DNA of 64,000 nt. It comes from Tubulanus polymorphus (Eukaryota; Animalia; Nemertea). Of the stretch, positions 1,363 to 57,510 are shown piece by piece. Made by a program: the position numbers and the translations under genes. Location: the NCBI RefSeq assembly GCF_964204645.1, contig NC_134031.1, positions 11,286,088-11,350,087 on the forward strand, given 5' to 3'. Position 1 is the first letter of the stretch. Each line of letters opens with the position of its first letter. Below the pieces are notes generated by a model that saw only the letters and a list, made by a program, of their open reading frames with translations, was not told the origin of the DNA and searched no databases.

Positions 1363-1552
1363 AGTAATAGGGGTAATGGGCTTTCAGGTTAAAGGTTGAA
1401 GGGGTGAGTGAGTAAAAAAATGAAAATAACAATAATTTACAGTTGAATTAGGAGTGTGCGCGACTAATTCAACTGTAAATTATTGTTATTTTCATTTTTT
1501 TACGAGCTCGACCCTTCGACCTTTGATCTGAAAGCCCATTACCCCTATTACT
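1363..1552. repeat. 190-bp terminal palindrome (89-bp arms, 12-nt loop)
   Basis: Arm 1363-1451 pairs with arm 1464-1552 with 8 mismatches; loop GAGTGTGCGCGA. Confidence 0.95.
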
Positions 1553-10029: not shown

Positions 10030-10246
10030 GCTAGAAACGATAAACATGAGTTGGCTGCAACGACAAGACTAGATAGCGGAGAATTTGTTCATTCAGATAC
10101 CACCCGAATCATGCAAGGTGGGTGGTCCCAAGCATACCATCAGGAGTTGCAAGGGGTCTGAAATCCTAGTCACCACCAGTTACAAATGATAATAAACTGT
10201 CTAATAAAACTAAGTAATTATATATACAGGGTTATATACAAGGGTA

Positions 10247-10457
<211 letters not shown>

Positions 10458-10465
10458 CCCTTTGA

Positions 10466-13740: not shown

Positions 13741-14102
13741 TGATATAGGGTTCCGTAGTGAAATTCCTAGCTCAGAGAATTGACAAGAAATGTGGTTGTT
13801 AGTTAATTCAGTTTATTGAGCCGACCGAGCTGTTGCGAGAGCTAGAACAAGAGAGTCTAGAACAAGAGAGAGAACTGGAGAATGAGTCCACGACAAGCGT
13901 ATTTATACTCTCAGATGGCCACGTCAATTGAACAATGACCATCTGGATTACTTGATGATCACGAAGGCCACGTTGGCAAAACAATGACCATCTGGATTAA
14001 TCACGAAGGCCATTTTTTACTAATGTAGAGTTTCAAATATGTGCTCAAATTTCCGGAGCATATGTTTCACTGTAAGCTATCTAGCTCATCTTCTATATAT
14101 CA
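13741..14102 (-). repeat. 3' LTR of Gypsy B (362 bp), with PPT at 14103-14117
   Basis: Direct repeat of 37656-38029 with about 5 substitutions and 2 indels. Minus-strand GGAAGGAGGGGCAAC immediately precedes TGATAT. Confidence 0.95.
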
Positions 14103-14497
14103 GTTGCCCCTCCTTCCGGTGACTCGACCTCGTGGCATAAAAAATATTATAATTCTATATGACAAATACGGCACGATTGATTAACGGCAAGTCAACACAA
14201 AACTAAGATAGTAGCATACTCATCGAACAAATACTGATAGTTAATGTTGAAGGTTGCTAGAGCCTGCGAGGAATCGAACCTCACCGCTGTAAGACTTATC
14301 GTCCCAACGGTTGCCAGATCCAGGGACATAGCCAAACAAAATATACAGGTTGCCGAAAGATGCATAACACTACATTTAAAACCTATTTCCGTTGTGTGCC
14401 ACCAATCGCTGCCATAAAAATTCATTGTAAGTAAAATGAAACTTCGTAAAATTAATACATTACTACTTACTTCAACTCTGAATACAACCTGGGCTCA

Positions 14498-14860
14498 TAA
14501 AAAATGAAAAATATGAAAATAATAACAATTTCTATTTGAATTAGTAGCGAAACTCATATAAAATGAAAAATAATTCTCGCACACTCGAATTTATTTTTCA
14601 TTTTTTTTCATTTTTTACTCACTAGCCCTTTCAACCTTTGATATGAAACAAGATATTCCCTATTACTCTTAAAATATTCATATATATGAATAAAATATAA
14701 ATGAATAACTTCTAAAATCAATTTTAATAAAAAATTTAGTATTAAAATGGAAGCAAATAAGTACTACTGTCCAACATGTAATATCAATATAGATAAATCC
14801 CAAAAAGCAAGACACAATAAAACTAAAACACATTTAGAGAATAAATTGAAACTAGAATAT
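14498..14860. repeat. Left TIR (363 bp; lacks the outer 12 bp and a 49-bp internal piece relative to the right TIR)
   Basis: Reverse complement of 31172-31583; includes the first 38 codons of pPolB. Confidence 0.92.
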
Positions 14861-17800
14861 GAAGATGATATATTAGAAACTAAATTAGATGAATTAAAGA
14901 ATGAAAAAGAAACATACAAATGTGATACATGTAATCTATCATTCAGTGATAAAAGATATTATAAAGAACATTTAAAATCTAAAAGTCATATTAGAAATAA
15001 GAATTATGATATTTTAGGTGAAGATTATTTTGATGAAGATAATGATAAGAAACAGAAGACAATTAAAAGCATAACAAATAAATTAAACAATAAAAGACCA
15101 TACATGGAAGATGTAAGAAAATATATTAATTTATTGGATAATAAAAAAGATATAGAGATAACCGAAGCATTTAAAAGTGATATTGGCCCAGCAGCTATCG
15201 AGTTTAAATTTCATAAAGGAAAAACATTAGAAGAAAATAAAAAACATTTAGAAAATATGAAAGAAATAATAAAAATAATTACTGATGTTGAATATCCTAA
15301 AATAAGTATATCAGTTAAAGTAAAGTTTATAAAATCTGAAGATAAACCAATATATAATATAAATTCTCATTTACAACATATTATATATAAACAACATATA
15401 GATGATAAATTAGATAAATGTTATAATGAAGTAAAAACTAAAATAGAAGAGAAATATTTTGAAGGTTCTGGTTTAATATTTGATGAAATAATATTTATGA
15501 CTTTACATGTTTATAACACAAAATATAATAAGTTAACTAAATCAAAACCAATTGATGAAAATAATGTATCATATTATAAAGAACCAGATATTGAAGCATC
15601 GAGTTATATTAAACTACCATTTAAAACTAATGCTGTAATAAATGTACAAAATGAAGATGATAAATGTTTTCTATGGGCTATAATAAGTTGCTTACATCCA
15701 ACAGAAGATATTACACATAGTTTTAGATTAACTCATTATAAACAATTTGAAAATAATTATAAGATAGATAAGTATCCTGTTAGAATTAAAAATATTCCAA
15801 AAATAGAAAGAGATAATAATATAAAGATAAATGTATTCGATTTAATCAAATTACCAAAAACAAAAGGTAATAATATTAAACATTATACATTAGAACCTTT
15901 ATACCTATCAAAAGATTATGATTCAAACGATGTTATAGATATACTATATTATGAGAATCATTACATGTGGATTAAAAGAATTGATTTATTTTTTAAATCA
16001 GAAAATGATTTTGATAATAAAATATATCTTTGTAGAAAATGTTTACATAGATTCAGTAATGAAAGTACATTATTAAATCATAAACAATTATGTGAAAATC
16101 ATGATTATTGTAAATTAGGTTTACCAAATGAAAAGGATAAAATATTAGAATTCAAAAAATATGATTACAAAAATAAAGTACCATTTGTAATATATGGAGA
16201 TTTTGAATCATTAAATAAAGAATTAACTGATCAAGATAGAAAAGAAATATATTATAAAAGAAAGAAATTAAATTCTAATGAAAATGATTTTTCAGATGAA
16301 CCACCAAAAACAAATACTATTAAAAAGATTCATCAATCAGCTGCTGCTTTCGGGTTACATATAAAATCTGATTATCCAGAACTAATCAAAAGTGAATATT
16401 ATGATTATAGAAATGAAAATGTTATCAATCATTTTTGTGACTTATCAATTGAATATGAAATAAGATTTAGTAAATTATTGAATACAAATATAGAAATTAT
16501 AATGACAGAAGAAGATAAAGAAGAATTTGCGTTTGCAGATAAATGTTATTATTGTGAAAAGATATTTAATTATAAAGATAAAAAAGTAAGAGACCATGAT
16601 CATTTGAACGGAAAGTTTAGAGGCGCTGCGCATGAGAATTGCAATTTGCAAGCTAAGAAAATTAATTTTGTACCAGTTATATTTCATAATCTATCAGGAT
16701 ATGATGCACATTTATTCATCAAACAGTTATGCCATAAAATAGAAGAAATTAATAATGAAATAGATAGATTAAATTCAAATAGATCAAAAGATAAAATACC
16801 AACTCATAAATTTAGAATGTTAGCTAAAACATCTGAGAATTATATATCATTCCAATTTGGGTGTTTAAGATTTATAGATTCATATAGATTTTTAAATAGT
16901 TCATTAGATAACTTATCAAAATCATTAGTTGATGATGAATTAAAAATATTAAAACAACACTATCCAAATAATGATGATTTTAAATTAATGAGATATAAAG
17001 GAGCAATTCCATATTATTTCTATAAAAATCATAATGATTTTAACATAACTGAATTATTGAAAGAACAATTCTATGATGAATTAAAAAATGAATATGTTAA
17101 AGATGAAGTCTATAACAGAACATTGAATATTTGGAATCATTTTAAAATAACAAATCATGGGCAATTAATAGATATATATTTAAAATCAGATGTATTATTA
17201 TTAACCGATATATTCGAAAGGTTTAGAGATGTTAACCTAAAATATTTTAATATTGATCCATGTCATTGTTATTCATCACCAGGATTAACATGGGATTGTG
17301 GTTTAAAATTTACAGATATAAAAATGGATTTGTTAACAAATATAGATCAATTACTATTATTTGAAAAATCTATAAGAGGAGGAGTTTCAGGTGTATTAGG
17401 TGATAGATATTTCAATGTAAATGATAACCCTGGATATAAGTTATTATATATAGATGCAAATAGTTTGTATGGTTGGGCAATGATGGAACCACAACCTTAT
17501 GGAGTATTTGAATTAACTGAAGTTTTACAGAATGAAAATAATGATAAATTTGATTGGAAGAAAAGAATTCTAGATATTGCAGATGATTCAGGTACTGGTT
17601 ACTTCTTTGTTGTAGATTTAGAATATCCTGAAGATAAAAAATTTAAATCTAGAAATCTAGCTTACTGCCCCGAACATAAAACTGTAACTCATGAAGAATT
17701 ATCAAATTACCAAAAAAGAATTAAACCCGAAAATCTTATTCATACAGAAAAGTTAATGGTAACTCAAGAAGATAAATATAATTATGTAGTACATTATAGA

Positions 17801-18787
17801 ATGTTAAAGTTTTATCTAAAACAAGGAATGGTTCTAAAAAAAGTACATAGATATATTTCATTTAGTCAATCTAAGTGGTTAGAAAAATATATAGATTTTA
17901 ACACCAAACAGAGAACTGAAGCTAAAACTGATTTCGAAAAAGATTTCTTCAAGTTAATGAACAATGCATTCTATGGTAAGACTTGTGAAAATATTAGAAA
18001 TAGAAATGATATTGAGTTAGTTAGTAATGGTAAAAGAATTAGACATTTACAATCATATCCTAAGTTCATTGGTAACAGAATATTTGATGAAAATTTAGCC
18101 GCAGTTAAAATGAGAAGAACATCAATGAAATTTAATAAACCAGTCTATGTTGGCGCTTCAGTTTTAGAAATATCAAAATTACTAATGTATGAATTTTATT
18201 ATAACATATTACAACCACTTTTTGGAGAAAAACATATAGAAATCTTATATTTTGATACCGATTCTTACATATTAAAGATAAAAACTGATAACATAACAGA
18301 TGATTTAAAAACATTAAAACATCATTTCGATTTTAGTAACTATCCTAAAGATCATGAACTGTTTAGCAATGATAATAAAAAAGTTCCAGGGAAGTTTAAG
18401 GATGAATTAGGTGGTGAAGAAATGATAGAGTTCATAGGTATTAGATCTAAAATGTATTCATATAAAACTAAAGAACATGAAGCTAAAAAGTTAAAAGGAA
18501 TAACCAAAAGTGTAGTAGAAAAGAATATTCATTTCAAAGATTACATCAATTGTATATTCAATGAAGAAGTTAGAAAACATAAGATGAGATGTTTAAGATC
18601 TGAAGATCATGAAATGTTTATTGAAGAAATTGAAAAGATAAGTCTAAACCCATTTGATGATAAAAGATATATTTTAGATGATGGAATTCATACAGTTGCT
18701 TATGGTTGTAATTTAGATGAATACTTAAAATTTAAAAGAGAAGAAACAAAAGAGAACGAGATAATGAAAAGAATTCTAACTTGTTAA
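14747..18787 (+). CDS. polB: Protein-primed family B DNA polymerase (pPolB), 1346 aa, with N-terminal C2H2 fingers and an endonuclease-VII-like insert
   Basis: ExoI VIYGDFES, ExoII FHNLSGYD, ExoIII YLKSDV; pol motifs YIDANSLYG, KLMNNAFYGK, YFDTDS, KKLKGI. CYYC..VRDHDH..GKFRGAAHENCN insert. Intact ORF. Confidence 0.97.
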   Translation: MEANKYYCPTCNINIDKSQKARHNKTKTHLENKLKLEYEDDILETKLDELKNEKETYKCDTCNLSFSDKRYYKEHLKSKSHIRNKNYDILGEDYFDEDNDKKQKTIKSITNKLNNKRPYMEDVRKYINLLDNKKDIEITEAFKSDIGPAAIEFKFHKGKTLEENKKHLENMKEIIKIITDVEYPKISISVKVKFIKSEDKPIYNINSHLQHIIYKQHIDDKLDKCYNEVKTKIEEKYFEGSGLIFDEIIFMTLHVYNTKYNKLTKSKPIDENNVSYYKEPDIEASSYIKLPFKTNAVINVQNEDDKCFLWAIISCLHPTEDITHSFRLTHYKQFENNYKIDKYPVRIKNIPKIERDNNIKINVFDLIKLPKTKGNNIKHYTLEPLYLSKDYDSNDVIDILYYENHYMWIKRIDLFFKSENDFDNKIYLCRKCLHRFSNESTLLNHKQLCENHDYCKLGLPNEKDKILEFKKYDYKNKVPFVIYGDFESLNKELTDQDRKEIYYKRKKLNSNENDFSDEPPKTNTIKKIHQSAAAFGLHIKSDYPELIKSEYYDYRNENVINHFCDLSIEYEIRFSKLLNTNIEIIMTEEDKEEFAFADKCYYCEKIFNYKDKKVRDHDHLNGKFRGAAHENCNLQAKKINFVPVIFHNLSGYDAHLFIKQLCHKIEEINNEIDRLNSNRSKDKIPTHKFRMLAKTSENYISFQFGCLRFIDSYRFLNSSLDNLSKSLVDDELKILKQHYPNNDDFKLMRYKGAIPYYFYKNHNDFNITELLKEQFYDELKNEYVKDEVYNRTLNIWNHFKITNHGQLIDIYLKSDVLLLTDIFERFRDVNLKYFNIDPCHCYSSPGLTWDCGLKFTDIKMDLLTNIDQLLLFEKSIRGGVSGVLGDRYFNVNDNPGYKLLYIDANSLYGWAMMEPQPYGVFELTEVLQNENNDKFDWKKRILDIADDSGTGYFFVVDLEYPEDKKFKSRNLAYCPEHKTVTHEELSNYQKRIKPENLIHTEKLMVTQEDKYNYVVHYRMLKFYLKQGMVLKKVHRYISFSQSKWLEKYIDFNTKQRTEAKTDFEKDFFKLMNNAFYGKTCENIRNRNDIELVSNGKRIRHLQSYPKFIGNRIFDENLAAVKMRRTSMKFNKPVYVGASVLEISKLLMYEFYYNILQPLFGEKHIEILYFDTDSYILKIKTDNITDDLKTLKHHFDFSNYPKDHELFSNDNKKVPGKFKDELGGEEMIEFIGIRSKMYSYKTKEHEAKKLKGITKSVVEKNIHFKDYINCIFNEEVRKHKMRCLRSEDHEMFIEEIEKISLNPFDDKRYILDDGIHTVAYGCNLDEYLKFKREETKENEIMKRILTC

Positions 18788-18816
18788 TCAAATTTTAATA
18801 AAAATATGTATTATAA

Positions 18817-19170
18817 ATGGAGAGTAAACAAGCAAACAGTGAGAACAACAAATTATTTCTAGATAGAATAAAAGATATAACAAATGTAAAATCTGTATAT
18901 TATAAATTCAAAAAGTTAACAGAATTAATAATCCATAAGAAATATCTAATTACAAATATTGATACAGTTACTAACAAATATGGAGATAAATTAGTTATAC
19001 ACTTAGAATATGAAGGATTAAAAGGAAATACATATAAATTCAGAACATATTTACCAGATAGATTTCATAGATTATCAAGTGAAGATCTAGAAGAATTATG
19101 TTCTGGAGATTTCAATTTCGTATACAAAGGTAAGAATGAAAAAGGGCACCATGAAATAGATTTCGAATAA
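18817..19170 (+). CDS. Small viral protein, possibly an OB-fold ssDNA-binding protein
   Basis: Intact 117-aa ORF right after pPolB with a beta-rich FKKLTEL..KKYLI..TNKYG..YLPDRF pattern; the function is inferred. Confidence 0.55.
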   Translation: MESKQANSENNKLFLDRIKDITNVKSVYYKFKKLTELIIHKKYLITNIDTVTNKYGDKLVIHLEYEGLKGNTYKFRTYLPDRFHRLSSEDLEELCSGDFNFVYKGKNEKGHHEIDFE

Positions 19171-19187
19171 GAAAATATGTAAAATAA

Positions 19188-19942
19188 ATGGTAGAATTAA
19201 AAGAATACAGAATATTTGTTGATTCTAGAAGGCTTACAAATTATAAATCTCATAATTTACTAGTACAATTAGATAGAGAATTCAAGAATTGTGTTGATTT
19301 AAAATTAGTTAATATAAGTTTATGTAATTCTTTTTATAATATATCAGATAAAACTTTTGAACATAGAGGGTTTATGATTTATATGAGAAATAAAGATAAA
19401 TGGTTTCATATATTTTTAAAACCAGGATTATATAATTTAGAATCATTAGCGCAGGAAATTAATGGAAGAGCTCGGTTGAAAATCAGGGGCACTTCTGTAT
19501 TTGAAATTAAATTTAATAAAATTGATAGTACTAATAAAATTAGAATAAAGATATCTAATGAACAACATAAATTTATGGTAAACAAACCACTGGCTAAAAT
19601 GTTAGGAATTAAACCGCTTACAGTTACTGGAAACGCAGAAGGCAGCTCAAATATAATACCTTTTACACACTTTTATATTTATTGCAATTTAATCGAGCCT
19701 ACAAAAACTTTCGAAGCAACTAAAGAAACAATTTGTAGTTCTAGTATACTAAATATTTTACCGCTAAAAATGTTAAACAATTTGGAACTCAAATAAATTA
19801 TAATTTAACAGAATGTGATTTTAAACCTTGCATTCCTAAATTTAATAATTTTAAATTAGAAATAAGAAATCATAATGGATACTTAATTGATTTAAATAAC
19901 TTTCCTGTGATATATGAATTAGTTATAAGATGTAGAGAGTAA
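19188..19942 (+). pseudogene. Minor capsid protein (penton), frameshift in the A-run near 19768
   Basis: IFVDSR, NSFYNIS, PGLYN..LAQEIN, YIYCNLI. The second frame gives ...KLEIRNHNGYLIDLNNFPVIYELVI, a typical penton C-terminus. Confidence 0.8.
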
Positions 19943-19958
19943 TTTTTTTGATATATAA

Positions 19959-20315
19959 ATGAATATAACTGTTGGACCGAGTATATGTTTTGGGTTTGAT
20001 TTTAAACATGAGAAAGAAATGGAATTTAACATTAATGATGTAATTACACATATTAAAAATATTGCATTTTCTAATGAAACAACATCTGAGTATGAAACAA
20101 CAATAGATAAAAAAACTTTAAATGTAGAAAAGATTACTAATTTAATTAGAGAATCTTCAAGATTTTATGAATTAGATGAAGATTTTATCATCGATGATAT
20201 TAAAAAAATAATAATTGAAATATATACAAATGAAACTAGTAATGAAATAAATGTTGAAATAATTATAAATAAGATAACTAAATATTTTGATGATAGTAAT
20301 TTTTTTGATAAATAA
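19959..20315 (+). CDS. Viral hypothetical protein (118 aa)
   Basis: TAAATG start; tightly packed in the gene block. Confidence 0.6.
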   Translation: MNITVGPSICFGFDFKHEKEMEFNINDVITHIKNIAFSNETTSEYETTIDKKTLNVEKITNLIRESSRFYELDEDFIIDDIKKIIIEIYTNETSNEINVEIIINKITKYFDDSNFFDK

Positions 20316-20537
20316 ATGAGTGATAATAAGTGGATAATAACTGGATTATATAATGGCGCATTACTATCAGTTGGAACTGTTGGTTATTCAATGGTATTAA
20401 AAAAAGTATTCAAAATGGGAAGTGTTAATGTTGATAGATTTGATATAAATGATATTTTAAAATTAACATTAGCAGTTACTTTATCTAATTTAACTATTGA
20501 TTATTTGGAAAAACAAAAATATATTCCTCCCATATAA
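20316..20537 (+). CDS. Small hydrophobic viral protein (73 aa), putative membrane protein
   Basis: Two hydrophobic segments (GLYNGALLSVGTVGYSMVL; ILKLTLAVTLSNLTI); TAA-ATG coupled start. Confidence 0.7.
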   Translation: MSDNKWIITGLYNGALLSVGTVGYSMVLKKVFKMGSVNVDRFDINDILKLTLAVTLSNLTIDYLEKQKYIPPI

Positions 20538-20561
20538 ATGCATAATTTTTTTGCTAAATAA

Positions 20562-20852
20562 ATGGCTTCTGCAATTATAACTATTATAGGATCGGCAATT
20601 GTTAACGCTTTAGCATTTACAGGTGGTGGTTATTTATTTAAGCATATTAATAAAAATAGTTCATTAGGAGAACAAAGAAGACATAACTTAGCGTTAGAGA
20701 AATACAATAAAGCAGCAGAAGAATATAGAGAAAAAAGACAAAACTATATGGATTATATTAACAAGGAATTATATGATCAGACGATTTCACATTGAGATTT
20801 TCAATCAGTTGATGATGCAATGAGTTTATATAACGCGGTAACCAAAATAATG
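20562..20852 (+). pseudogene. Viral protein with N-terminal hydrophobic helix and coiled coil (premature TGA at 20793-20795)
   Basis: MASAIITIIGSAIVNALAFTGGGYLF...EQRRHNLALEKY; the frame reads on past the stop (DFQSVDDAMSLYN). Confidence 0.65.
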
Positions 20853-20874
20853 AATTAGAGTGCGCTTTACCAGG

Positions 20875-21844
20875 ATCTAGATATTTTAAAGAATTAGATA
20901 ATAATATTAATTTATCAAAGTTTTATAAAATTTGTAATGAATTTAATATAGATATAAATAATTCTGATTTTAGAACAAAAATTGGAACAATAAGATCACT
21001 TCCTTGCCCTAAAAAGATTGCAGAATATTGTGCACTTCCCATACCATCTAATAGTTTTTATAATATCTATAATAATAAATTAGGTTATGTTAAAATAGAA
21101 ACAAAGGATTTAGAAACATTAAATTTCAATAAATTACCGAAATTTTATGATCATTTAAAACAAAAAAACAATAATGGTTGGGTTTATTTCATTTTAGAAA
21201 ATAGTGAAGGTTTTACTAAATCAGGTATAGAAAGAATAAATCAATCTATTAGAACTTATTTGATATGTATTCTAGGTGCACAAGTTGAAACAAGATCCCC
21301 AATAATTGGAAATTTAAATACATCATTCGATACACAGAAACAATTCAAAGTATTATTTGAAGATTCAATTCATAATGATAAAAATAGATCGATTCCAGAA
21401 AACATTGTAAGATATCAAAATTATTTAGATAAATCACATGTAAGACTAAATTATTGTATAGGCCCTAATCTATTAATTATTTCTAATGATTTAGTACTCA
21501 AGATGGGAAACATAATTGGTTATAATAATCTAATTAAAACTGCAACAATAAATAATTCATTTGGATTAAATGATATAAATAAAAAGATTATCACTGCTCC
21601 AAAATTAATGGAAGGTGAAAAAAATAAAAAACACATTCAATCAACTGAAACTAAAACTAATAATATTAAATTAAATAATGATTCTAAAATAAAAGATTAC
21701 AATACATCAGAAAATATAAAAACTGATACTATTCAACATGAAATAATTAAAACTAATGATGATAATAAATCCCATGAAAATACTAAATTAGCTATAACTT
21801 GTATAGGAATTGTAATCGGAGGAATATTATATTTTAAATTTTAA
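20875..21844 (+). pseudogene. Viral protein with C-terminal TM anchor (start apparently deleted)
   Basis: The frame is open well upstream of 21260 (...SEGFTKSGIERINQSIRTYLICILGAQ...) and ends LAITCIGIVIGGILYFKF. Confidence 0.65.
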
Positions 21845-21861
21845 TTTTTTTTATTATGTAA

Positions 21862-23547
21862 ATGGCAGAAGGTGGGGAAGATATTCCATTGGATCCTTTT
21901 GGTGACACCCCCGGTATAAGTGATGAACCACTTCCTGATTTTAGTGAAACAAGTTTTAATGATGGTAATGAGCCAGGATATAATAATAATTTAAATATAC
22001 CCGATTATGATGATGATGGTGTTGATTATGATTATGAAACGCGTAAAGAATATAAAGAATATATGACAGCTACCGAAAGGTTAGTTATTAGAACCGCAAC
22101 ATCTAGAAAGGATTTAATGAAAAGATTAGTAAATACAACTGATCCTCTTATGAAATATCAATTAAAATCAATGAAAAATAGAGTAATATATACAATTGTC
22201 AACGTATTATTACCAAAAGATGTAATAGATGAAATTGGTTCAGAAGGTGTTGTAGAACAAATTTTAAAAGATGACCCATTTTTCATGAATAATTTAGAAT
22301 TTAAAAATGATGCATGGTATTATAATGTTGAATTAAATAACAAAAATGTATCAATTCAATTATCTAGAATGGCTCAAGAAAATATTTTTGAACCTGGAAT
22401 GCGAGCAAGATCTACAATTGAAGGTTCAAAAGGCGGTAGAGAATTTCTCAGAATTATATGGAATGCAATCGATAGAATAAATAAAGAAAAACCAATTCCT
22501 AAAATTGATATTAACAAATATTCACCATTTAAAAATCCAAATTTAAATCCTACTGATGTTGATCCAGAAATGGAAGAATATGGAGATCGATCAGATAGAT
22601 TAAGATCTTCAACACCAGAAACATCGAGAAGAGACACTCAACCAATTGATAATGATTCAAGTCAATGAATTAACATTAGAAAAACAAATTGATAGATTAA
22701 GAGATTCAGAAGAAGAGATAAATAGTATTTTAGATACGCCCGGTACTGAAACTGGAATAAATCGAATACAATCTTTACTAGAAAAAGGACTTCTTAAATT
22801 AACTGATGAAGAATTAGAAGCATTTCCTGAACAAACACGTAGAGAAATTAAAGGTATACAAGAATCAGCCGATGTAAATGCTAATATTAATATGAGATTT
22901 TCTAAAATAACCATGTTAGAAAAAGAATTAGCTATTGCAAATGAAAAATTAGAACAATTAGAATTAAATAGAGATGAACCTGATTATGAAAGCAGAAAGT
23001 TAGCTTTGGAAAAAGAAATAGATGATTTAAAATATAACATAAAATTACAAAAAGAAGAAAGAGACATATTATTGAAATCATATGATCTTAATCATATTAA
23101 AAAATTAAAAGTTATTTTTATAGATTTAATAATAAAATCAGATTCTAAACTATCATTGAAAGATAGAATAAGATTATTATTTAAGTTAGAAGGAATAACA
23201 ATTCTTTCAATTCTAACAGCTGTATCTATGTTATTTACAACAATTGGTTTAGCTATATCAAATTCATTAAAATCTACACCTACTCCTAAAAACCAGATAA
23301 ACCCCCAGATAATAATTCAATACAAGATAAAGTTAAAGATGGTTTAAAGAAATTAGCAAAATATTTATGGGAACTATCAAAAAAATCTGCTGCAGCATTG
23401 CCAGGAGTTATTGCATCAATTGTTGGTTTTATATTGAAATCTGCAGGAAACATTATTAACTTTGCTGCTGAACATATTATTTTATTTTTAATTACAGTTG
23501 TAAGTGCAATTATTTTTGGGCTAGTAAACATGATTAAAAATAAATAA
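21862..23547 (+). pseudogene. Large viral protein (~560 aa): acidic N-terminus, coiled coil, multi-helix hydrophobic C-terminus; two frameshifts (~22660, ~23290)
   Basis: Three overlapping frames join. C-terminus: GITILSILTAVSMLFTTIGLAI...AAALPGVIASIVGFILKSAG..HIILFLITVVSAIIFGLV. Confidence 0.7.
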
Positions 23548-23567
23548 TTAATTTTTTTGTTAAATAA

Positions 23568-24797
23568 ATGAGTGGGAGTTATATCAATCATTCTAAGAAT
23601 CATAGAATATATAATGCTATTAAAGCAGAAAGATCACATCATATAATTACTCATAACCCTTCTAATATTAATCCCGATGAAACTTTATATGTTAGAATTC
23701 CTCGATTAACACAAAATACTTTTTATGTTCCAAATAGTATTTATTTATCTGCCGATATAAAAGTAATCGGTAATAATAATAATTATGTTGTTGATAATGT
23801 TGGAAGAAATTTGATTAAAAAATTAACTATAAAGATTGGTCCAGAAACAGTTTTCTCATTAGATGATTATAATTTATTTATGCATTATAAAGATTTATGG
23901 TTAACTAAAGAAAATAGAAATAATATGATATTTCAAGGAATCCAATCAGAAAACCAAAATAAATAAAGATCAGAAGCTAATAGCGCAATATTAACTAATG
24001 CTGTAGATAAATTGATAAAAAGTATATATGGAAGCAAATATAAAATTCCATTAGACTTTGAATTGATAAATAACAATGCGCCTTTATATAAATATGCAAT
24101 TCAAGAAGACGTTATATTCGAAATAACATTTGCTCCTGAAAATGAAATAATAAAGATATGAGTTATAAATTATCGAATATATGTTTAGAATATGATACAG
24201 TAACTGATGAAAATATTTCAAGTATAATTCAAACTAAATACAATCAAGGATTTTCATTATTATATGATTATATTGATAAATTTAAAACTGTAACTATTAA
24301 TGCAAATGATGAAATTATTAATGAGAATATTAACTTCCCAAGAAGATCTATTAAAGGTATATTAATATTTTTTACCATTGCAACATATACTAATGGCGCA
24401 ATAAATGTTGATAATTATTATAATCCTGAAATAACAAAAGTAGAAATAACTATCGAAGGAATAGCAAATAAAATATTTTGTCAAGGAATGAGAATGATAG
24501 ATCAATGGCCAGAAATTAGAAAACATTTTATGAATGAAAAAGTAAAATCATCTGAAAATTGTAATATTAATCAAATTGATTATTATACCGGTAATAAATA
24601 TGCATTATGGTTAGATTTTAGAACAACAGAGGATAATTCATTACATGGTTCTGGAAAAAAATTACAAAACACTAAAGATGGAATACAATTATTCATGACA
24701 AAGAATAAAGGAATCAAAAATTTTAAAATGCACATTTATATTATATCTGACGCACAATTAAATTGTAAATTCACAATTAGATAGTGTTATGTATTAA
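23568..24797 (+). pseudogene. Major capsid protein (double jelly-roll type, inferred), with a nonsense codon at 23964 and frameshifts near 24150 and 24762
   Basis: ~400 beta-rich codons: ITHNPSNINPDETLYVRIP, VVDNVGRNLIKKL, YKIPLDF, YKLSNICLEYD, YALWLDFR. Size and context fit a Polinton-type MCP. Confidence 0.75.
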
Positions 24798-24829
24798 AAT
24801 TTTAACTTTATTAAAAATTTATATAATAA

Positions 24830-25689
24830 ATGGAAGGAGGAAAAGTATATAAACATATTCCATACATCGATACACATGAAAATAATGATGGTTTATATTA
24901 TGTAATACCTTGTAATATAGCTTTGATATTTGATCCTATTTTCAAAATTTATAATTGATAATAATAGTAATTGATAATAATGTAATACCTTCTACATCTA
25001 ATAATGTAATACCTTCTACATCTAATAATGTAATACCTACTACATCTAATAATGTAATACCTACTACATCTAATAATGTAATACCTACTACATCTAATAA
25101 TGTAATACCTTCTACATATAATAATGCAATAATATTAAATGTTAGTAAAAATAGAAATTATTGTGATTATTGTAAAGGTGAATTTTCAAACGCTCCATCA
25201 AATTGGAATAAACATATGAATACAAATTCATATATTACTAATGTTATAGAACGTGTTGGTTTAAAAGAATTTATAGAACACCCATTTAGATATGTTACAA
25301 AATTTGTTTCAAATAAAAAAGTAAATGGTAAACAATTATATGAAGATTTTTTATTAGCAACACCTGATAAAAATGAATTATATTTAACTGATGCTAATGA
25401 AATATTAGGATCAAACACTGTAAATGAAATATTAGGAGCAAACACTAATAATGATTCTATGAAACATAAAGTAGAAAATAATGATAAATTTGATTGGATG
25501 AATAAGAATAACAATGAAACAACTATTGATGATTCGGTAAAAAAGGTGAAAAATAAGTATAAAAATAATAAAGAATTTGAAGAAGAAAATTCGGTAGAGA
25601 ATTTGAAAAAATTGATGGGGTATGATAGTGAATTGGAGAGTGATGATGAAAGTGATTCAGAAAGTAATTATCTAACACTCAAAAAGTAA
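24830..25689 (+). pseudogene. Viral protein with NNVIP(S/T)TS repeats, a degenerate zinc finger and an acidic tail (frameshift near 24950)
   Basis: TAAATG start at 24830; YCDYC...WNKH motif. Confidence 0.55.
24975..25131. repeat. 24-bp coding tandem repeat, 6 copies plus a partial one
   Basis: TAATAATGTAATACCT(T/A)CTACATC. Confidence 0.95.
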
Positions 25690-25843
25690 TAAAGGTTGAA
25701 AATTGTATAAAATAATAGTAAATAAAAAAGGGGGTTTTAAGTATTTAAGGTATCTAATAGGGTATCAGGTATTAGGGTATCTAATAGGGTATCTAATACA
25801 TAGGTAACTAATAGGGGTATCTAATACATAGATATATAAATAG

Positions 25844-26455
25844 TTATTTTATACATTTATATTCATAGGGAAATTGTAATCTCAGTAATAATTTTGAACC
25901 TTTATTATTCTTTAATTTATTCATATATTCATCATGTAATTCAGTAGGTATAATTTGATTTTCTTCCAATGATTGTTGCATAGATTTTTTATCTTTGTTA
26001 TAAAATAAAACTAGAAATCGTATATTCTCCCTAAAGTCTTTAACAATTGAATAATATTTTTGATTTAAAACCCATGTTGTTATCCCAAAATGTCTCCCAG
26101 AGAAAGCTAGATAACATAATTCACTTTCTCTAACTTTTGAATCATGTAAATTTGCGCAATCATCTATAATGAATAATGTATTTGATCCTTTATAAATATC
26201 AATTGCTATTTTTATACAATTATCTAAATTTTCTTTTACTGTTTTAGGATCTAATATGATAAACTTTTTCATCTTAACTATATCTCTATTATATGTTTCA
26301 TTCATTTCATAAGTAGGACAAAAGAATATTATGTTATCAAAATGATTCTTATAAATAGTTTCTAACAAATCTAATATGAAATGTGTTTTACCACAATTGG
26401 TTACTCCAGTAACTAACATATTATGCGGTTCAAATATAAATAAATCTTTATTCAT
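25844..26455 (-). CDS. A32/FtsK-like genome packaging ATPase
   Basis: Walker A LVTGVTNCGKT, Walker B FIIDD, FSGRHFGI and Q..R.N motifs; intact. Confidence 0.92.
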   Translation of the reverse strand: MNKDLFIFEPHNMLVTGVTNCGKTHFILDLLETIYKNHFDNIIFFCPTYEMNETYNRDIVKMKKFIILDPKTVKENLDNCIKIAIDIYKGSNTLFIIDDCANLHDSKVRESELCYLAFSGRHFGITTWVLNQKYYSIVKDFRENIRFLVLFYNKDKKSMQQSLEENQIIPTELHDEYMNKLKNNKGSKLLLRLQFPYEYKCIK

Positions 26456-27530
26456 TTATTCTTTTAATTTTACTAGATAAAATCCATTCATTAAATTTAT
26501 CATCGTATCCTTTATATTTCACCAAAGAATACTTTTTTCCTTTAAGAGTTTTTGTTTTCAATACTTTTTCTATTTTGTATTCTATTTCATCTGGGTTTGG
26601 TACAAGTGATAATTCTTGTTCATAGAAATAACCTAATATTTCTTCATCTTTTATATCTTCTAATTTATAAACAAAAGGTTTAGTTAATATTATCCTTTTA
26701 ATCTTAAATATTTCTTCTGTAAAATTTGGGGTATAACCTTTATAAAAGGTTTTTCTATATTTAGATATTCTTACGTGTTGTCCAATTTTGGATCTAGGTT
26801 CTCCGAAATCATGTGTAACAAATGCGCCATATAAATTATTCCAAACTATTTCTGAATTATCTTCTTTTTTAGCTTGTATAGGTTTCATATTTATAGAACT
26901 ATGTTTAGAATTATTATAACCTTTCACCAAATCATCTAACACATCGATATATTTATATGTTTCATTAGCAGTAAAATATTTCCACATTCTAGTTTTCAAT
27001 GTTTTATTAAATCTTTCTATAATAGATGCTTTTTTATCTGAATGTGTTGAAAAATAATCTACATCGTTATCAGATAATAGTTTTTTGAAATGTTTGTTAT
27101 AAAATTCCTTACCTTCATCAAATTGTATCTTATCTGGAATAGCTTCTTTAAATATTGATTTAAAAGCATTTGTCACTTCTATTCCAGTTTTATTTTTGAT
27201 TGGAATTGGCCATGCGTATCTACTGAATATGTCTATAACATTCAGTATCCAGAAATATCCTTTGTTGTATTCTTCTAAGTTCTTCATGTCAATTAAATCT
27301 GCTTGCCATTGTTGTTCGATATACGAAACCATAACTTTTCTTGTTAAATAAGTTTTATCCATTTTCTTATGAATTTGATAAGTTGGTTGATTTTGTAACC
27401 ATGATTTCAATTCACTATATTTTATATTACCATTATCAGATTTAATTTAATTCCATAATTCTGAAACGCTAGAATATGATACTTCACTTTCTGGGTTATA
27501 ATATAAATCTCTTAAATATTGTTCTTTAGT
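26448..27530 (-). CDS. int: Retroviral-like (rve, DDE) integrase with C-terminal chromodomain; N-terminus disrupted upstream of ~27445
   Basis: WQADLID, QFDEGKEF, IERFNKTLK; chromo-like YKIEKVL..LVKYKGYDDKFNEWI. The upstream YYNP..YSSV fragment is out of frame. Confidence 0.92.
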
Positions 27531-27879
27531 TTATTTAGTTTCAATGACTTTATGATTTGACTTATTTTCTGGTATGAAAGGTTTATTATTATTGGAATCA
27601 TCTTTATCATCAGATTTGAATTTTGATTTATATATTACACCGGATAATATAATAACTGTTACTAATCCAATTGTAATATATAATTTATAATTACTTCCAG
27701 CATTAGAAGAATTAGATGGATTATTATTTGAATCAATATCAGATAAAGTCTGTGATTCATTTATATCAGTTAATTTCTTTTTCTTAGCTTTTTTTTAATT
27801 CTGAAGATCTTTTACCTGATTCTCTTGCCCATTTAATTTGTTTCTCGGATCTAGCCTTTTTCTTAACTCCATCACTCAT
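27531..27879 (-). pseudogene. Small basic viral protein with one TM helix (+1 frameshift in the homopolymer run near 27790)
   Basis: 8 T here versus 7 T in the open copy at 1-303. Confidence 0.65.
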
Positions 27880-28480
27880 TTATTTTAGTTAATTTTTGTT
27901 CTGATTCATTTTCTGTTTCGACGTTTGGTTGTAGTTCATCTGTTTCGTTCTTACCTGATTTATATTCCATAGGTTTGATGTTCGAAAATGTTATGACGCC
28001 AGTAGAAATTAATGTCATAACCGATCCTAATTGAAATGAAGCATAACCAACCCATTTTTGTAATTCAGTCATAACTAAGTAGTCATTTTTCAAATCACTA
28101 TATAATTTATTTTCATCATCAATTGGTATTAACTGGTTACATAACTTAGAATAACATTTGACAATACCATCAAAAATAGAATCATTTATTCGGGCCAATC
28201 TTGACTCTTCATAAATCTTAAAATATTTTATTACTTTATCTGGTTTCATAGAGTCAAATTCTTGAAAAGTTATTATTTTCCCGATAAACTGATTACATTT
28301 ACCACTAGCAATTAATAATTCTAGATGGTGCTTACAATATAAATAGTATTCATAATCAATATTACAATTAACTTGAATATTATTTTCAATTTTGGTTGGA
28401 ATATCCTTATTATCACTAATGCCCAAATCATCTAATGTTTTTTCAATATCAATACTATTCTTATTAGATTTCTTTGACAT
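27872..28480 (-). CDS. Viral hypothetical protein (202 aa)
   Basis: Intact, TAAATG start, conserved in the second copy. Confidence 0.75.
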   Translation of the reverse strand: MSKKSNKNSIDIEKTLDDLGISDNKDIPTKIENNIQVNCNIDYEYYLYCKHHLELLIASGKCNQFIGKIITFQEFDSMKPDKVIKYFKIYEESRLARINDSIFDGIVKCYSKLCNQLIPIDDENKLYSDLKNDYLVMTELQKWVGYASFQLGSVMTLISTGVITFSNIKPMEYKSGKNETDELQPNVETENESEQKLTKINE

Positions 28481-29083
28481 TTATATTAGAGAAAAAAAGC
28501 AAAAAAAATATTATAAGTATTCTTCAAATGATACTAGTATCTCTTTAGGTTAATACTAAATTGACTAGGTTAGTTAAAGTTAAAGAATTTCTATTCAAAA
28601 CTATTCAAAATCTATTCAATCTAATGTCAATTAGAATTACCAAACGAAAATATTAAAAATATAATAGAATTCACTAGCTAGTTGAAGTTATTGTTTTTTT
28701 TTAATATATTTTTTTTAAATTAGGATTTAGATTATCACCATGTGGGTGCCGTACGGCACCATCTCACTACCATTGTTTATCTATAGGAGCAGTAACTATA
28801 ACTGTCCAGATAAGTCATTTCGGATTCTCGATAATAAATCCTAAAACTGAAAATAAATTCAAAGAAACGACTGGTGGAAATATTATTTCATAAACACATA
28901 TATTTATTATGTAAATTTTAGCGATCGATAATAGAACAATGGAGAACAATAGAAAAGCGGTCCAATCTGACCGGTTATTGCGCAATACTTAGTTAACAGT
29001 AAACAATACAATATTAAAACAGATATATACAATCGAGATTACATTTTTGATATCTATGTTACAAAGACCTTCAGTGTTATAAT

Positions 29084-29808
29084 CTATAATTTTGTCCAGA
29101 ATTCTTTAATTACTGGATTGTTTCCAATCATTTCTTCAATTTCTGGTAAATATCTGACTACTTCACTAAATGCTAATCCTAATATTTTGAATTTTTCATA
29201 TTTTATTAATCTACCTACTCTTCTCAGTTTTCTTTCAAAACCAGCACTGATATCTATGTTCTTTTTAACCCACAGCCCCCAAGAAATCCCCGCAGTTTCT
29301 TTATCAAACATTGTAAACCCTATATTTAGATAACCCCCGAAAATGATGTGGTCCCATAGGTGATTTGCTTTTCTATTTAATATGGTTTTATAACTTTTTT
29401 TTAAGATATCAGTAATTTCAGCAAATGAATTAACTTCTACACTTTGTATTTCCGGAAAGTTTAAATGTTCTGTGTCAATGATTAATTTAGATTTTACTCG
29501 TTCAACTCTTCTCCACTCATTTTCTTAGTTTTCGATTCTTTGAGTCCCAACAGCAATTTAAGTCGCGTTGCTGGTAATTTTGGTAATTGTAGTTCGCGCG
29601 GTTATTGTTTATTATGTATTACATCGCTCAGAATTTTCACCATTTCTTGATGATAGTTCAAATGTTCTTGTAATGTTTGTGATGTTTGTTCGTCAATTAC
29701 GAGAGTTTCATCCTCCATTTCTATTGATTCCTGAGTTTCACTATCTATCGTTTCTGGTTCCTCATCCGTTTGTTGGCTTGGAATTTCTGGTTGATCTCTG
29801 TATTCCAT
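29084..29808 (-). pseudogene. Viral hypothetical protein (~240 aa) broken by a stop at 29602 and a frameshift near 29522
   Basis: ORFs 29602-29808 and 29084-29311 can be joined through KQ*PRELQ...KTKK / EWRRVERV...DHIIFGGYL. Confidence 0.55.
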
Positions 29809-30268
29809 TTTAATTTAAAAGATGTCGTGAAAATGAATTACTGTACTTAAATATGTTTAAAGGTTTCCCTACTTCATAATAACTACAAAAAACGGTACTT
29901 ACATTTAGATTTAGAACAGTAAACTGTGTTTTGAGAGAGAATATCCAATACGTACTATGTATGTGAAAGTTGATTTCTAACTGCCGACGTGGCGCACGTT
30001 CGACCAAACTAATTACTTCTGCACAGATGTTCTTTATGATGAAGTTAATTAATTCTTTAGAATTGAAATCAAGATATATTTGGCAACATATGTTTTAGTA
30101 GTAAGCAAAAGCTATGTATTATATACATACAAAGCTCAAATAGAATTGCCAGCTTTCTAACCACTGATCAAAACCTCAGAATGCGGTTGATTCTGTGAAA
30201 TACTATTCCATAATTCAACAAATGTCTTTGCTTCATCCAGTTGATCTAAATATAACTGTAAATCTAGT

Positions 30269-30823
30269 TTATTGTTTAATTATTTTTTCCTTCTTTTCTA
30301 AAGGTCTTAGATTCTTCCAATTCCAAATAAGTTTTTTATTGTATTCATCATTCATGTCAAATTTAGAAATCGGCAACACGTGATCAATATGAAAGTATTC
30401 ACCATAATTATCTATATTCATTTTATCATCGAATTGAAATATAATCCATGATTTGAGAAATTCATCTGAACAACCCAATAGATTAGATAGTGTTTCTGAA
30501 TGTGTTTCTTTGTTGAATAATTGTGTTAATCTAGATCTTAAGCATTGTTTCAATCTAAAATTAAGATCTGTTTGATATCTTACTCTCATATATTCTGTCA
30601 TATAATCATTATAAGCTTCTCTATTATCTTCTCTATATTGTTTGGTATATAGTTTAAAACAAGTTTTACAGCAATATTGAAAACCATCTTTGCTAATCTT
30701 ACGCTTACTAAATTCTGTTAAAGCTAATTTATCTAATTCACATTTAGAACACTTCTTGTAATATATATTTATAACAGCAGTGTTATTTGTAATATTGATA
30801 ATTTGTGGTTGTTCTGGTTCCAT
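30269..30823 (-). CDS. HNH/endonuclease-VII-like nuclease of the giant-virus/phage type (C-terminus possibly frameshifted)
   Basis: KKCSKC..EF..DG....CKTC zinc ribbon, RL..RSRL, LLGCS, NYG..FHIDHVLP, NWKNLRPL. Confidence 0.8.
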   Translation of the reverse strand: MEPEQPQIINITNNTAVINIYYKKCSKCELDKLALTEFSKRKISKDGFQYCCKTCFKLYTKQYREDNREAYNDYMTEYMRVRYQTDLNFRLKQCLRSRLTQLFNKETHSETLSNLLGCSDEFLKSWIIFQFDDKMNIDNYGEYFHIDHVLPISKFDMNDEYNKKLIWNWKNLRPLEKKEKIIKQ

Positions 30824-31057
30824 TTATTATACGTATTTTTTACTAAATTGGTTAATATTTTAGAATCCTCTTCTATTTCTTCAACCAACGTCATCCTTTT
30901 TCATTCCTCGCTGCTTTTGATAAGTCGTTTCGATTCCTTGATATCTAAATAATACCACTGGGCAAAACCGCGCGTTCGTGCACAGTTTTGCTCAATGCGC
31001 ATGCGCTAATCATAATTATATATAATTATGTAAATAGAAACAACCGACATGAAATAT

Positions 31058-31285
31058 CTAAATCATATCCTTGATATCAAATTCCTCAACGTATTGTTCA
31101 TTATTTGGATCATTATTCCATAATTCAATAAATTTCTTTGCCTTTGTTAACTGTTCTGAATATAACTGTAAATATTCTAGTTTCAATTCATTCTCTAAAT
31201 GTGTTTTAGTTTTATTGTGTCTTGCTTTTTGGGATTTATCTATATTGATATTACATGTTGGGCAGTAGTACTTATTTGCTTCCAT
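31058..31285 (-). CDS. Small C2H2 zinc-finger protein sharing its first 38 aa with pPolB
   Basis: Starts in the right TIR; 37 of 38 residues identical to the pPolB N-terminus; unique tail conserved in the second copy. Confidence 0.75.
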   Translation of the reverse strand: MEANKYYCPTCNINIDKSQKARHNKTKTHLENELKLEYLQLYSEQLTKAKKFIELWNNDPNNEQYVEEFDIKDMI

Positions 31286-31595
31286 TTTAATACTAAAATT
31301 TTTATTAAAATTGATTTTAGAAGTTATTCATTTATATTTTGTTCATATATATGAATATTTTTAGAGTAATAGGGAATATCTTGTTTCATATCAAAGGTTG
31401 AAAGGGCTAGTGAGTAAAAAATGAAAAATATGAAAATAATAATAATTTCTATTTGAATTAGGAGTGAAACTCATATAAAATGAAAAATAAATTCGAGTGT
31501 GCGAGAATTATTTTTCATTTTATATGAGTTTCGCTACTAATTCAAATAGAAATTGTTATTATTTTCATATTTTTCATTTTTTACTCACTAGCCCT
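31172..31595. repeat. Right TIR (424 bp) ending in a 193-bp palindrome (31403-31595)
   Basis: AGGGCTAGTGAGT...ACTCACTAGCCCT fold-back with 3 mismatches and 1 bulge; loop GAGTGTGCGA. Confidence 0.95.
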
Positions 31596-31982
31596 GAGGA
31601 CCCATTTTCTGTGACTGGAGCCGGTCATCTCCAGTGGAAAAGTAAAGAAACAAATGCACTGTATTCAAATATAACCATCCAAACAACGGACGCAATACTG
31701 ACAAAATGGTTAACGGATGCGGAAAGTTGTGTAGCCTAGTGTCAAATGTGTACCTGGACTCTGCTTCGCTGCGAATATCATCTGCCAGTTCAGGAAGTAG
31801 CGGAGAGGCTGATGTGTGCCGTCTGTGCTGTCGTCTGGTATCGAAGTGTGGTGGAACGTCGAACATTACATCATTGTATCGATAAAACGAGGTATTTTGA
31901 CTTCTCGCAGATCAAATGCGTGACCATTTTCAAACTTCGAGGCATTTTTGTCGGTTTCCAGGCAGCATGGACAAATTCTGTT

Positions 31983-33311
31983 TCAAGTGTATTCGGGCGC
32001 CATCCTGATCGGTGCGCGACGTCTCGGCTCTTGTAGTTGATTAAGTATCGACGGATTAAGGCTAGTTATCCCTCCGAACCGTAACCAAATTCGAGTAAGA
32101 CGAACGCGGCTAGGGTGGTTCTTATAATCGTTGCAAGATATTACTTCTTTACGTAACCATGATAAATGGAAATGAAATTGTTTGGAATTAAATTCCGTGT
32201 AAAAATCACCAGAATGGGAGACACCGATATAGTCCGGAAGGTTTTTTATCAAGGTGCAATTGTGAGAGGACACATTGACTGGCACGGGCATTGCAGAAAC
32301 GGAATAGACGTTAAAAATAGTGCTGGTTTCTGATATTGGAAATTTTACGTAGATGTATATCGCCTTGTCAGTCCTCGTATAGAGAACGTTTCGAACTTGA
32401 TAGTAATGTCCTGGATTTGAATATGAAATTGTGAATCCAGGATAATGTGTAGAAAGGAGATCTCGGATCGTACCGATCGTTTTTGAAATTATATGCGATG
32501 GAACCAGATTGATCGGTAGATACCCATCAATTAGGTTTTGCACGCCGGCCAGCCATTTGTGTCCCTCCATAGAATATTGTGCAGACACCTCTAGCACCGA
32601 GGAAAAATACTGGAAGAAATCACTCATGGCCAGCAGTGAAGCTTCCATGTCCGAGATCCGTACCCTGTTTTGTCCGGCGAATTGGGAGAGTTTGATAAGG
32701 TTATCCTGGATATTATTGATGAGAGCGTGATTGTTTCGCACACCCTCAACAATGTTATCCAGGCGGGATGATGTCACATTCATAAAGGAGGACATCTCCC
32801 TACCTTGACGAATGACTTCGTTTTTAACCAATTCAGAAGCTTTTTCTAATCTGCCTATGTGGCTCCGGATCTCGCTCACTTCGCTTTCAGTGGCTGTACC
32901 AAACATAACTTTGACACGCTTCCAAAAAAAGTTAAAAAGTCCGCGTTTGGATCTGTGGCCAGAAGAGGTTTGGTACATCCAAGCCGGCATGAGTGATTTT
33001 ATTTCGTTCAAGGTTGTCTCAAAACTAGCCGCCGAGTTGTTTCTCTGCTTTGCTAGAGCTATTATTGCCTGCTGCAGGTACTGGCATGCCCTGTCCGGAT
33101 TAGAAGGACAGTCAGGTGTTTTAAAATGCGGCAGCGGATACCGAAGCCAGGGAATAGAATATGTGTGGCTCCATACGGAGCCAGCATTGTCAACCTGTCC
33201 CTGTTCCGTAAACAGGACTCCATAGTCCTTTCGAAGAATTACTTTCTCCGCAACCTATTCCGTGCCAGCACCCACTATCAGGGTTAAGATGAGTAGATTA
33301 ATTGTACTCAT
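31983..33311 (-). pseudogene. env: Gypsy B envelope, baculovirus-F/errantivirus-type class I fusion protein (stop at codon 19; C-terminal TM part missing)
   Basis: Signal peptide MSTINLLILTLIVGAG, furin site RSKR followed by fusion-peptide-like GLFNFF..VMFGTAT, heptad repeat, GYLPINLVP. Confidence 0.85.
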
Positions 33312-37655: not shown

Positions 37656-38029
37656 TGATATAGGATTCCGTAGTGAAATTCCTAGCTCAGAGAATTGACA
37701 AGAAATGTGGTTGTTAGTTAATTCAGTTTATTGAGCCGACCGAGCTGTTGTGAGAGCTAGAACAAGAGTCTAGAACAAGAGAGTCTAGAACAAGAGAGTG
37801 AACTGGAGAATGAGTCCACGACAAGCGTATTTATACTCTCAGATGGCCACGTCAATTGAACAATGACCATCTGGATTACTTGATGATCACGAAGGCCACG
37901 TTGGCAAAACAATGACCATCTGGATTAATCACGAAGGCCATATTTACTAATGTAGAGTTTCAAATATGTGCTCAAATTTCCGGTGCATATGTTTCACTGT
38001 AAGCTATCTAGCTCATCTTCTATATATCA
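37656..38029 (-). repeat. 5' LTR of Gypsy B (374 bp)
   Basis: Direct repeat of 13741-14102 with one extra CTAGAACAAGAGT unit. Confidence 0.95.
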
Positions 38030-38126
38030 GATGGTTCTAGTAGGATGCGGACCATCAGTAGGTGTACCTCCACTAGAATCACATGCCGGGCCAGCAACCA
38101 CATATCCATCTTGAGGTGTCGTTTGC

Positions 38127-51081: not shown

Positions 51082-51302
51082 GAACTCACGTACGGCGTTT
51101 TTAGGGAACTCACGTACGGTTAACCTGTGGATATCACCGTACAGTCATGTACGGGTAACAACTTCGTACTTAATAAATGGTATTGGCTACTAAGAACTCA
51201 CGTACGGCGTTAGTAGGGAACTCACGTACGGTTAACCTGTGGAGATCACCATACAGTCACGTACGAGTAACAACTACGTACTACAAATGGTATTGGCTAC
51301 TA
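51082..51302. repeat. ~115-bp tandem duplication with internal ACTCACGTACGG repeats
   Basis: Two copies of GAACTCACGTACGGCGTT...TGGTATTGGCTACT. Confidence 0.8.
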
Positions 51303-57342: not shown

Positions 57343-57510
57343 GTACATTTGTTTTCTTTTGAGGCAGATCATAATTTCTATTACCATATTCATTATTTCT
57401 ACAAAATGATTGTTGTCCATCCAACTTCAAAAACTTATTTTGAGTTTAAATTGTTAATACAATTCAAATTTAATTTTTCTAAATTAATTATTCTTAATTT
57501 TCCCATATAG

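Follow-up and report, generated by a model that had tools for sequence, protein, structure and literature searches.

Polintons or Mavericks of the adintovirus type (Polintoviricetes) combine, in about 17 kb, a pPolB with terminal-protein and vOTU folds, an integrase, an A32 ATPase, a capsid gene and terminal repeats. To our knowledge, neither the exit of a Polinton from the chromosome nor the copying of its displaced strand has ever been shown. The element described here shares this composition, but its terminal repeat ends in an imperfect palindrome of 190–270 nt, and no maturation protease was found in its copy 2. An end hairpin of Polintons is not described in the available portions of PMC11296320, PMC6431247, PMC4061559, PMC12747079, PMC12220804, 10.1101/2022.05.25.493380 and 10.64898/2026.10.13.758929; in the last of these, a figure legend indicates a palindromic repeat without further specification. 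In the literature surveyed on this virus group, terminal palindromes appear in one paper; Kapitonov and Jurka 2006, Repbase and the bioRxiv supplements, which lie outside the survey, may describe them. According to the available part of this paper (bioRxiv 10.64898/2026.07.28.741278), the terminal repeats of one PLV subtype and four virophage subtypes from a protist contain palindromes, for which hairpin priming is proposed. The endogenous virophages and PLV subtype 4 of Halocafeteria seosinensis resemble the present element in having palindromes inside the terminal repeats, there beside a target duplication. Theirs measure 52 nt in the drawn example, reside in a protist host and accompany preferentially non-pPolB replication genes, and the section on palindromes contains no analysis of mismatch bias, covariation or orientation. 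Since terminal palindromes and a hairpin-priming model are already on record there, the first-pass annotation of this locus, which spoke of an undescribed mode of replication, packaging or end protection, was worded too strongly. Long, covarying, single-orientation hairpins together with a retained terminal-protein polymerase were not found in the literature surveyed.

Folded ends are also known from more distant systems. In the linear replicons of Streptomyces, a terminal protein primes on a folding 3′ strand, and fold-back end repair is shown to work (PMC5449611 and PMC4513846, in the portions available). There, the telomere folds contain G:A pairs, and the fold-back repair of clipped ends halts at a boundary. 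This likeness is a functional analogy only, as the Streptomyces telomeres are bacterial, belong to replicons with an internal origin, depend on Tap/Tpg rather than pPolB and carry several short palindromes instead of one long stem. Protein priming in adenovirus and PRD1 requires that the displaced strand recover a duplex origin, which the panhandle model explains by pairing of the far ends; here, in contrast, a local fold could suffice. The available text of PMC11886824 still calls the panhandle step unproven for both viruses. The ends of parvoviruses (AAV) and poxviruses are long imperfect terminal palindromes of similar length, but these occur as flip and flop and are processed by Rep nicking or junction resolution, whereas the ends considered here show one orientation, no Rep and a predicted terminal protein.

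The window, which is the whole 64-kb stretch of DNA analysed, contains two copies of one element. Copy 2 extends from about 14493 to 31595, has a length of about 17 kb and carries inverted repeats at both sides (14498–14860 on the left and 31172–31583 on the right). Copy 1 is the right end, positions 1–1552, and its right-hand body (1–1362) is 90–92% identical to parts of copy 2, the remainder lying beyond the window. The right repeat of copy 2 carries the first pPolB codons; about 39 of them are held on the minus strand at 31058–31285, where they lead into another short ORF, which is partially copied near 30186–30270. By the features that could be tested, the element is an integrated Polinton/adintovirus. 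The pPolB, the rve integrase, the A32 packaging ATPase and the terminal inverted repeats are all present, which bears out the earlier assignment to Polintons with pPolB and integrase, and the rve and Pox_A32 matches lie above the Pfam cut-offs. The host insertion site of copy 2 is the interior of a Gypsy-like LTR retroelement (13741–38033; repeats at 13741–14106 and 37656–38033), which has gag/pol/env-like ORFs on the minus strand, the env-like one with a weak Baculo_F match. No 6-bp target duplication of copy 2 rose above chance, with one 5/6 match in 210 offset pairs (about one expected) at ends that are both truncated.

In raw reads under the same species label, taken from about 12 in 100 of the run, the depth is mostly 500–700 within the element compared with 52 and 63 in two flank bins. 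The depth of the element is thus far above that of the flanks, so the family has many copies. Summed contig depth, which is no copy number, was also collected over 13900–32100, and the ratio of element to flank was about 240x in run X1, about 70x in X2 and few-fold in X3, where the depth was raised only across 27861–31502. Such an excess may come from a sample with free or amplified virus or from expression of the right part. Elsewhere, the window contains a PARP12-like gene (54779–57409), which suggests an animal host, two short MITE-like inverted-repeat elements with arms about 300 bases apart (47445–47776 and 50856–51144) and a self-complementary low-complexity tandem array (10166–10503), the source of many inverted-repeat rows.

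The polymerase gene of copy 2 (14747–18787, plus strand) encodes a pPolB of 1346 aa with zinc fingers, a predicted terminal-protein domain, a vOTU, an exonuclease region and polymerase motifs. The terminal-protein domain contains EGSG at residues 239–242, the vOTU has Cys307 and His405, and an endonuclease VII-like insert occupies residues 600–633 in the exonuclease region. A structure model of residues 120–700 (mean pLDDT 80) includes a domain of four strands and two helices with a Ser-Gly loop ahead of the last strand. The model matches the little finger of Y-polymerases (Z 8.6, rmsd 2.8, 103 aligned), a vOTU (Z 7.6, rmsd 3.6, 99 aligned) and, at residues 463–519 of the modelled fragment, the beta-beta-alpha-Me nuclease fold (Z 6.4, rmsd 2.0, 56 aligned). 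The little-finger match is described as a signature of the terminal-protein fold in the available part of PMC11071308, which also describes the arrangement of terminal protein and vOTU. Of 12 close polymerases, 10 retain the Ser-Gly loop and the Cys and His motifs, and the other two have no N-terminus. On predicted structure and motifs, the protein is a Polinton-type pPolB with terminal-protein and vOTU domains; its best structural match is Drosophila-associated adintovirus 2 (E 1.7e-22), and a sequence search of solved structures gave no identification for the polymerase core. The nuclease motif is found in 115 of 120 pPolB homologs, so it is neither tied to the hairpin nor special to the clade. 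Two polymerase relatives, P0010 and P0050, contain the intein-type Pfam domains PF14528 and PF14890.

Behind the polymerase gene of copy 2 lies a gene for a 117-aa protein (18817–19170, plus strand), which in the related loci L002, L004 and L006 is placed between the end and pPolB. A contig joint from 19170 to 14713 likewise puts the gene between end and polymerase in other copies. Its predicted OB fold (Z 4.4–5.8, within the range of common arrangements) and a weak match to phi29-type single-strand binding proteins (0.83) offer a lead to a possible single-strand binding protein. A sequence search of solved structures did not identify it, and its 92 homologs share no Pfam match. Polintons typically encode a double jelly-roll major and a single jelly-roll minor capsid protein. 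The next product (19188–19796, plus strand) is a candidate minor capsid protein with a weak DUF5901 match; the putative major capsid gene (23568–24784, plus strand) is fragmented, and its first piece has a weak Capsid_N match, both matches being below cut-off. A stop-to-stop frame of 225 codons at 20790–21480 (plus strand) is similar to the conserved PZ protein of Polintons. On the minus strand follow the A32-type packaging ATPase (25844–26455, E 1.4e-10), the rve integrase with a chromodomain (26448–27362, E 1.4e-08) and, near the right end, a candidate HNH-type nuclease (30269–30823) that follows pPolB in L002, L003 and L004. An adenain-type maturation protease had no match in 24 ORFs or by motif scan and may be absent, broken or too distant. 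No Pfam family of HUH Rep/NS1 nickases occurred in the 24 ORFs scanned, 16 of which belong to the element.

The terminal fold-backs were earlier given as palindromes of 193 nt (31403–31595, plus strand) and 190 nt (1363–1552, plus strand). Both fold end to end and beyond chance, with −85.8 kcal/mol (z −26.0) for the former and −84.2 kcal/mol (z −23.9) for the latter, and none of 200 shuffles was as stable in either case. The 193-nt palindrome is not, as had been assumed, the whole end. The inner arm of copy 2 begins at 31365, at the tip motif of copy 1, and its basal part (31365–31402, plus strand) has no partner, as the 38 pairing bases are missing; the right end of copy 2 is therefore truncated. 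The only whole palindrome in the window is that of copy 1, in which 1552, the inferred last base of the element, pairs with 1363 and gives, when folded, the ready primer-template that had been noted. The left end of copy 2 is also a remnant (14493–14667, minus strand), whose outer arm breaks off near 14493 and whose inner arm reaches 14667 but is without 49 bases. The near identity of the loops holds, and the window contains exactly three occurrences of one 9-nt loop motif, at 1452, at 14578 on the other strand and at 31495. In all three termini, the motif has one orientation relative to the end, and the three visible ends are thus the same isomer, as first described. The copies differ at the apex, where copy 2 has a palindromic extension of 59 bases in place of the loop of copy 1. 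Among seven differing stem columns, six are paired in both copies. The last bases of the right end of copy 2 mirror its own inner arm, while the left end is of the asymmetric outer type, and the right end looks like a product of re-copying on the inner arm.

Raw reads extend the comparison beyond the truncated ends. The majority letters of 485 reads past 14493 match the outer arm of copy 1 at 26 of 30 positions, and those of 649 reads before 14658 match its inner arm at 29 of 30. As compared by eye, with outer and inner sets not phased, the two majorities disagree at five of the 25 positions they share; all five are G.T on the 3′-ended strand, and three of these sites are not mismatched in copy 1. 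The majority of the 649 inner-flank reads has the same orientation as the window ends (agreement 0.88). The informative termini, namely the three window ends, L002 and L004, are in one orientation in 5 of 5 cases. A minority of inverted ends, even a sizeable one, may be compatible with such unphased read majorities.

Relatives were sought in metagenome contigs with an alignment of 12 close polymerases; the scan, which ran over 38 of 64 parts, confirmed 127 loci, of which 80 were kept. Viral contig searches for a close relative returned none confirmed of 5 candidates, one distant locus of 114, no pattern matches and 0 of 600, and a search of prokaryote genomes gave three distant loci. A fold-back scan of all 84 loci, which mostly stop short of an element end and so give no hairpin frequency, flagged L002, L017 and L078; the latter two were rejected as hairpins because their arm pairs are more than 500 bases apart. 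A three-way consensus fold was set aside, as the truncated arm of copy 2 was misaligned in it. The palindrome was expected in other copies and relatives, and it is present in L002, partly visible in L004 and absent from L005. At the left end of L002, whose pPolB is 77% identical, a palindrome of 257 nt begins at the same tip motif (z −13.7). The contig of L004 (77%) opens inside a hairpin, with a visible inner arm that ends at the tip motif. In L005 (62% pPolB identity), the tip layout is present, the second arm is absent and no hairpin forms (z −1.3). This layout, consisting of the tip motif and a paired hexamer 31 bases further in, is common to copy 1, L002 and the hairpin-less L005. Whole hairpins are known from two elements, and in the near relative L005 the hairpin is either dispensable or lost from that copy. 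L035 (29%), a distant complete Polinton and the only locus with both ends, has a 108-bp terminal repeat (L035:16-123) that contains a 14-bp stem some ten bases inward of the tip, so that short end hairpins may be more widespread.

The arms of copy 1 and L002 were compared over the first 28 pairs. Within each element, the arms agree at 26 of 28 and 25 of 28 positions, compared with 16 of 28 between the elements, and nine positions are altered in both arms; the apical stems of the two are unrelated. The arm covariation that had been put forward as a check is thus found. On this comparison, it is complementarity rather than sequence that is kept at the ends, and the palindromes are real and maintained across a clade. 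By their sequences, the terminal repeats of this Polinton family end in an imperfect palindrome of 190–270 nt. At the hexamer, the inner arms of copy 1, copy 2, L002 and L004 have T and the outer arms have C, which forms a shared T.G asymmetry. Through this asymmetry, the inner copy may be prevented from serving as an additional origin but still be able to pair; alternatively, the asymmetry may be one inherited change.

The strand bias of the mismatches was among the signs from which selection for single-strand folding had been proposed. The earlier count for the window, 11 mismatches on the 3′-ended strand with seven G.T and four G.A (eight in copy 1, three in copy 2, loop-adjacent pairs excluded), was confirmed, although it leaves out one irregular spot at the apex of copy 2, an A.A or a 1x2 internal loop beside it, and the mismatches are not independent. 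Five of the 11 fall in one 8-base cluster (1404–1411), and the G.A and T.G at 31462/31465 sit where copy 1 has its loop and look like a remnant of it. Owing to this clustering and the loop remnant, the number of independent events in the window alone is perhaps five or six. The basal stem of L002, where alignable, has on its 3′-ended strand three G.T, no A.C, one G.A, three C.T and one A.A; outside this count are one A.C just beyond the tip and the poorly aligned apical part, with four more G.T, no A.C, one T.C, one A.G, two C.C and one T.T. The excess of G.T over A.C is therefore replicated, with 7:0 in the window, 3:0 in L002 and 5:0 in the read majorities, a count that excludes the unalignable loop of L004, where two A.C-type columns appear. 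In the data beyond the first-pass annotation, six new G.T sites stand to none (0.016). The G.A bias is not replicated, as L002 has one G.A against three C.T. Of the proposed selection to fold, the parts that hold are the fold maintained in L002, the changes in both arms and the G.T bias. With DNA parameters, the two strands of L002 fold equally (−69.5 and −69.4); RNA parameters favour the 3′-ended strand in all three hairpins (−117.3 vs. −103.0 in L002).

The reading tentatively favoured here, at somewhat less than even confidence, is that protein priming is kept and that the 3′ end of the displaced strand folds locally to rebuild or repair the origin, with the Streptomyces telomeres as a precedent. 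Strand-displacement copying would leave over a single strand, the 3′ end of which would pair with the inner arm rather than, as in the panhandle model, with the far end 17 kb away. The terminal protein and polymerase would then start at the last base and copy the outer arm, the loop and the inner arm. Such copying of the whole end would preserve both orientation and mismatches and would require no nick, and wobble pairs would be tolerated on the 3′-ended strand, the sole strand that must fold. Occasionally, a shortened 3′ end would be re-extended on the inner arm, by which the arms would be homogenised. Rebuilding the outer arm from the inner one in every cycle would erase the mismatches, and symmetric resolution of a closed end would produce inverted ends, which the available part of PMC11575299 describes for AAV. 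One orientation, lasting mismatches and a retained terminal protein, taken together, fit protein-primed copying of the whole end.

The main competitor is self-priming, already suggested for the displaced strand in the first-pass annotation and, for protist virophages, in the available part of bioRxiv 10.64898/2026.07.28.741278. The 3′ hairpin would prime the second strand, and the closed end would be resolved by the endonuclease VII-like insert of pPolB or by the HNH protein. The folded end is indeed a ready primer-template, the pPolB model contains a beta-beta-alpha-Me fold, and the HNH candidate lies beside pPolB in L002–L004. As the main mode, self-priming is weakened by the retained terminal-protein and vOTU domains, which are predicted, and by the persistent mismatches; in addition, the nuclease motif is general among the homologs, and no HUH Rep was found in the 24 ORFs. 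Some parvoviruses resolve their ends with orientation preserved, so one orientation may be compatible with self-priming too. Rolling-hairpin replication, on the other hand, yields flip and flop (PMC11575299, in the part available), in contrast to the 5/5 termini and the read majority in one orientation. On balance, self-priming is regarded as unlikely. The same nuclease fold, of a junction-resolving type, would serve a role in excision, in which a cruciform based on the virus-host junction is cut, freeing a provirus with 3′-strand hairpins on which protein priming restarts. In copy 1 and L002, the hairpin has its base at the inferred junction, yet a cruciform folds both strands and would not require a bias on one, mismatches and a loop hinder its extrusion, and no excision product or empty site is among the 15 of 341 joints listed. 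Such a role appears quite improbable.

A fold without function would arise by one accidental snap-back copying that is merely tolerated, with arm conversion producing the mirrored changes and deamination of one strand producing the G.T excess. Every G.T is a deamination-type change on one strand, several of them at CpG/TpG sites, integrated copies show decay of the hairpins, L005 carries the tip but no second arm, and accidental annealing is offered as an alternative in the available part of bioRxiv 10.64898/2026.07.28.741278. This explanation is nonetheless rather improbable, since the palindrome persists although the tips agree at only 16 of 28 positions and the apical stems are unrelated, the T.G asymmetry is retained, and CpG decay in the host would presumably strike both strands alike. 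The preference of RNA parameters for the 3′-ended strand, with G.U wobble as an RNA signature, would suit a fold that acts as RNA, through an outward transcript giving rise to small RNAs; a packaging or end-protection signal belongs to the same group of roles. These roles are considered very unlikely, as the exact register with the tip would have no reason in an RNA, and no Rfam family was found in the window or L002.

Several considerations speak against the favoured protein priming with local folding of the 3′ end, among them the missing hairpin of L005 and the equal folding of the two L002 strands as DNA. When template lies beyond it, a folded 3′ end primes well; a stop to runaway extension is therefore needed, and none was identified. 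Moreover, the integrase may set the junction in an integrated copy, and the tip register need not describe the free genome; the proposal is built on integrated copies and short contigs. We regard as doubtful a hybrid cycle in a clade of animal Polintons, in which a protein would prime the first strand, whereas the displaced strand, or the release from the chromosome, would depend on self-priming by the hairpin; the element's own nuclease would resolve the end without inversion. If true, this cycle would bridge two groups of DNA viruses, those primed by protein and those with hairpin ends. As a substrate, the ends are small and defined; protein priming and self-priming predict opposite results on them, and the hairpin-less near relative serves as a natural control. 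Should the fold prove functional, it would illustrate how a protein-primed lineage can come to have hairpin ends.
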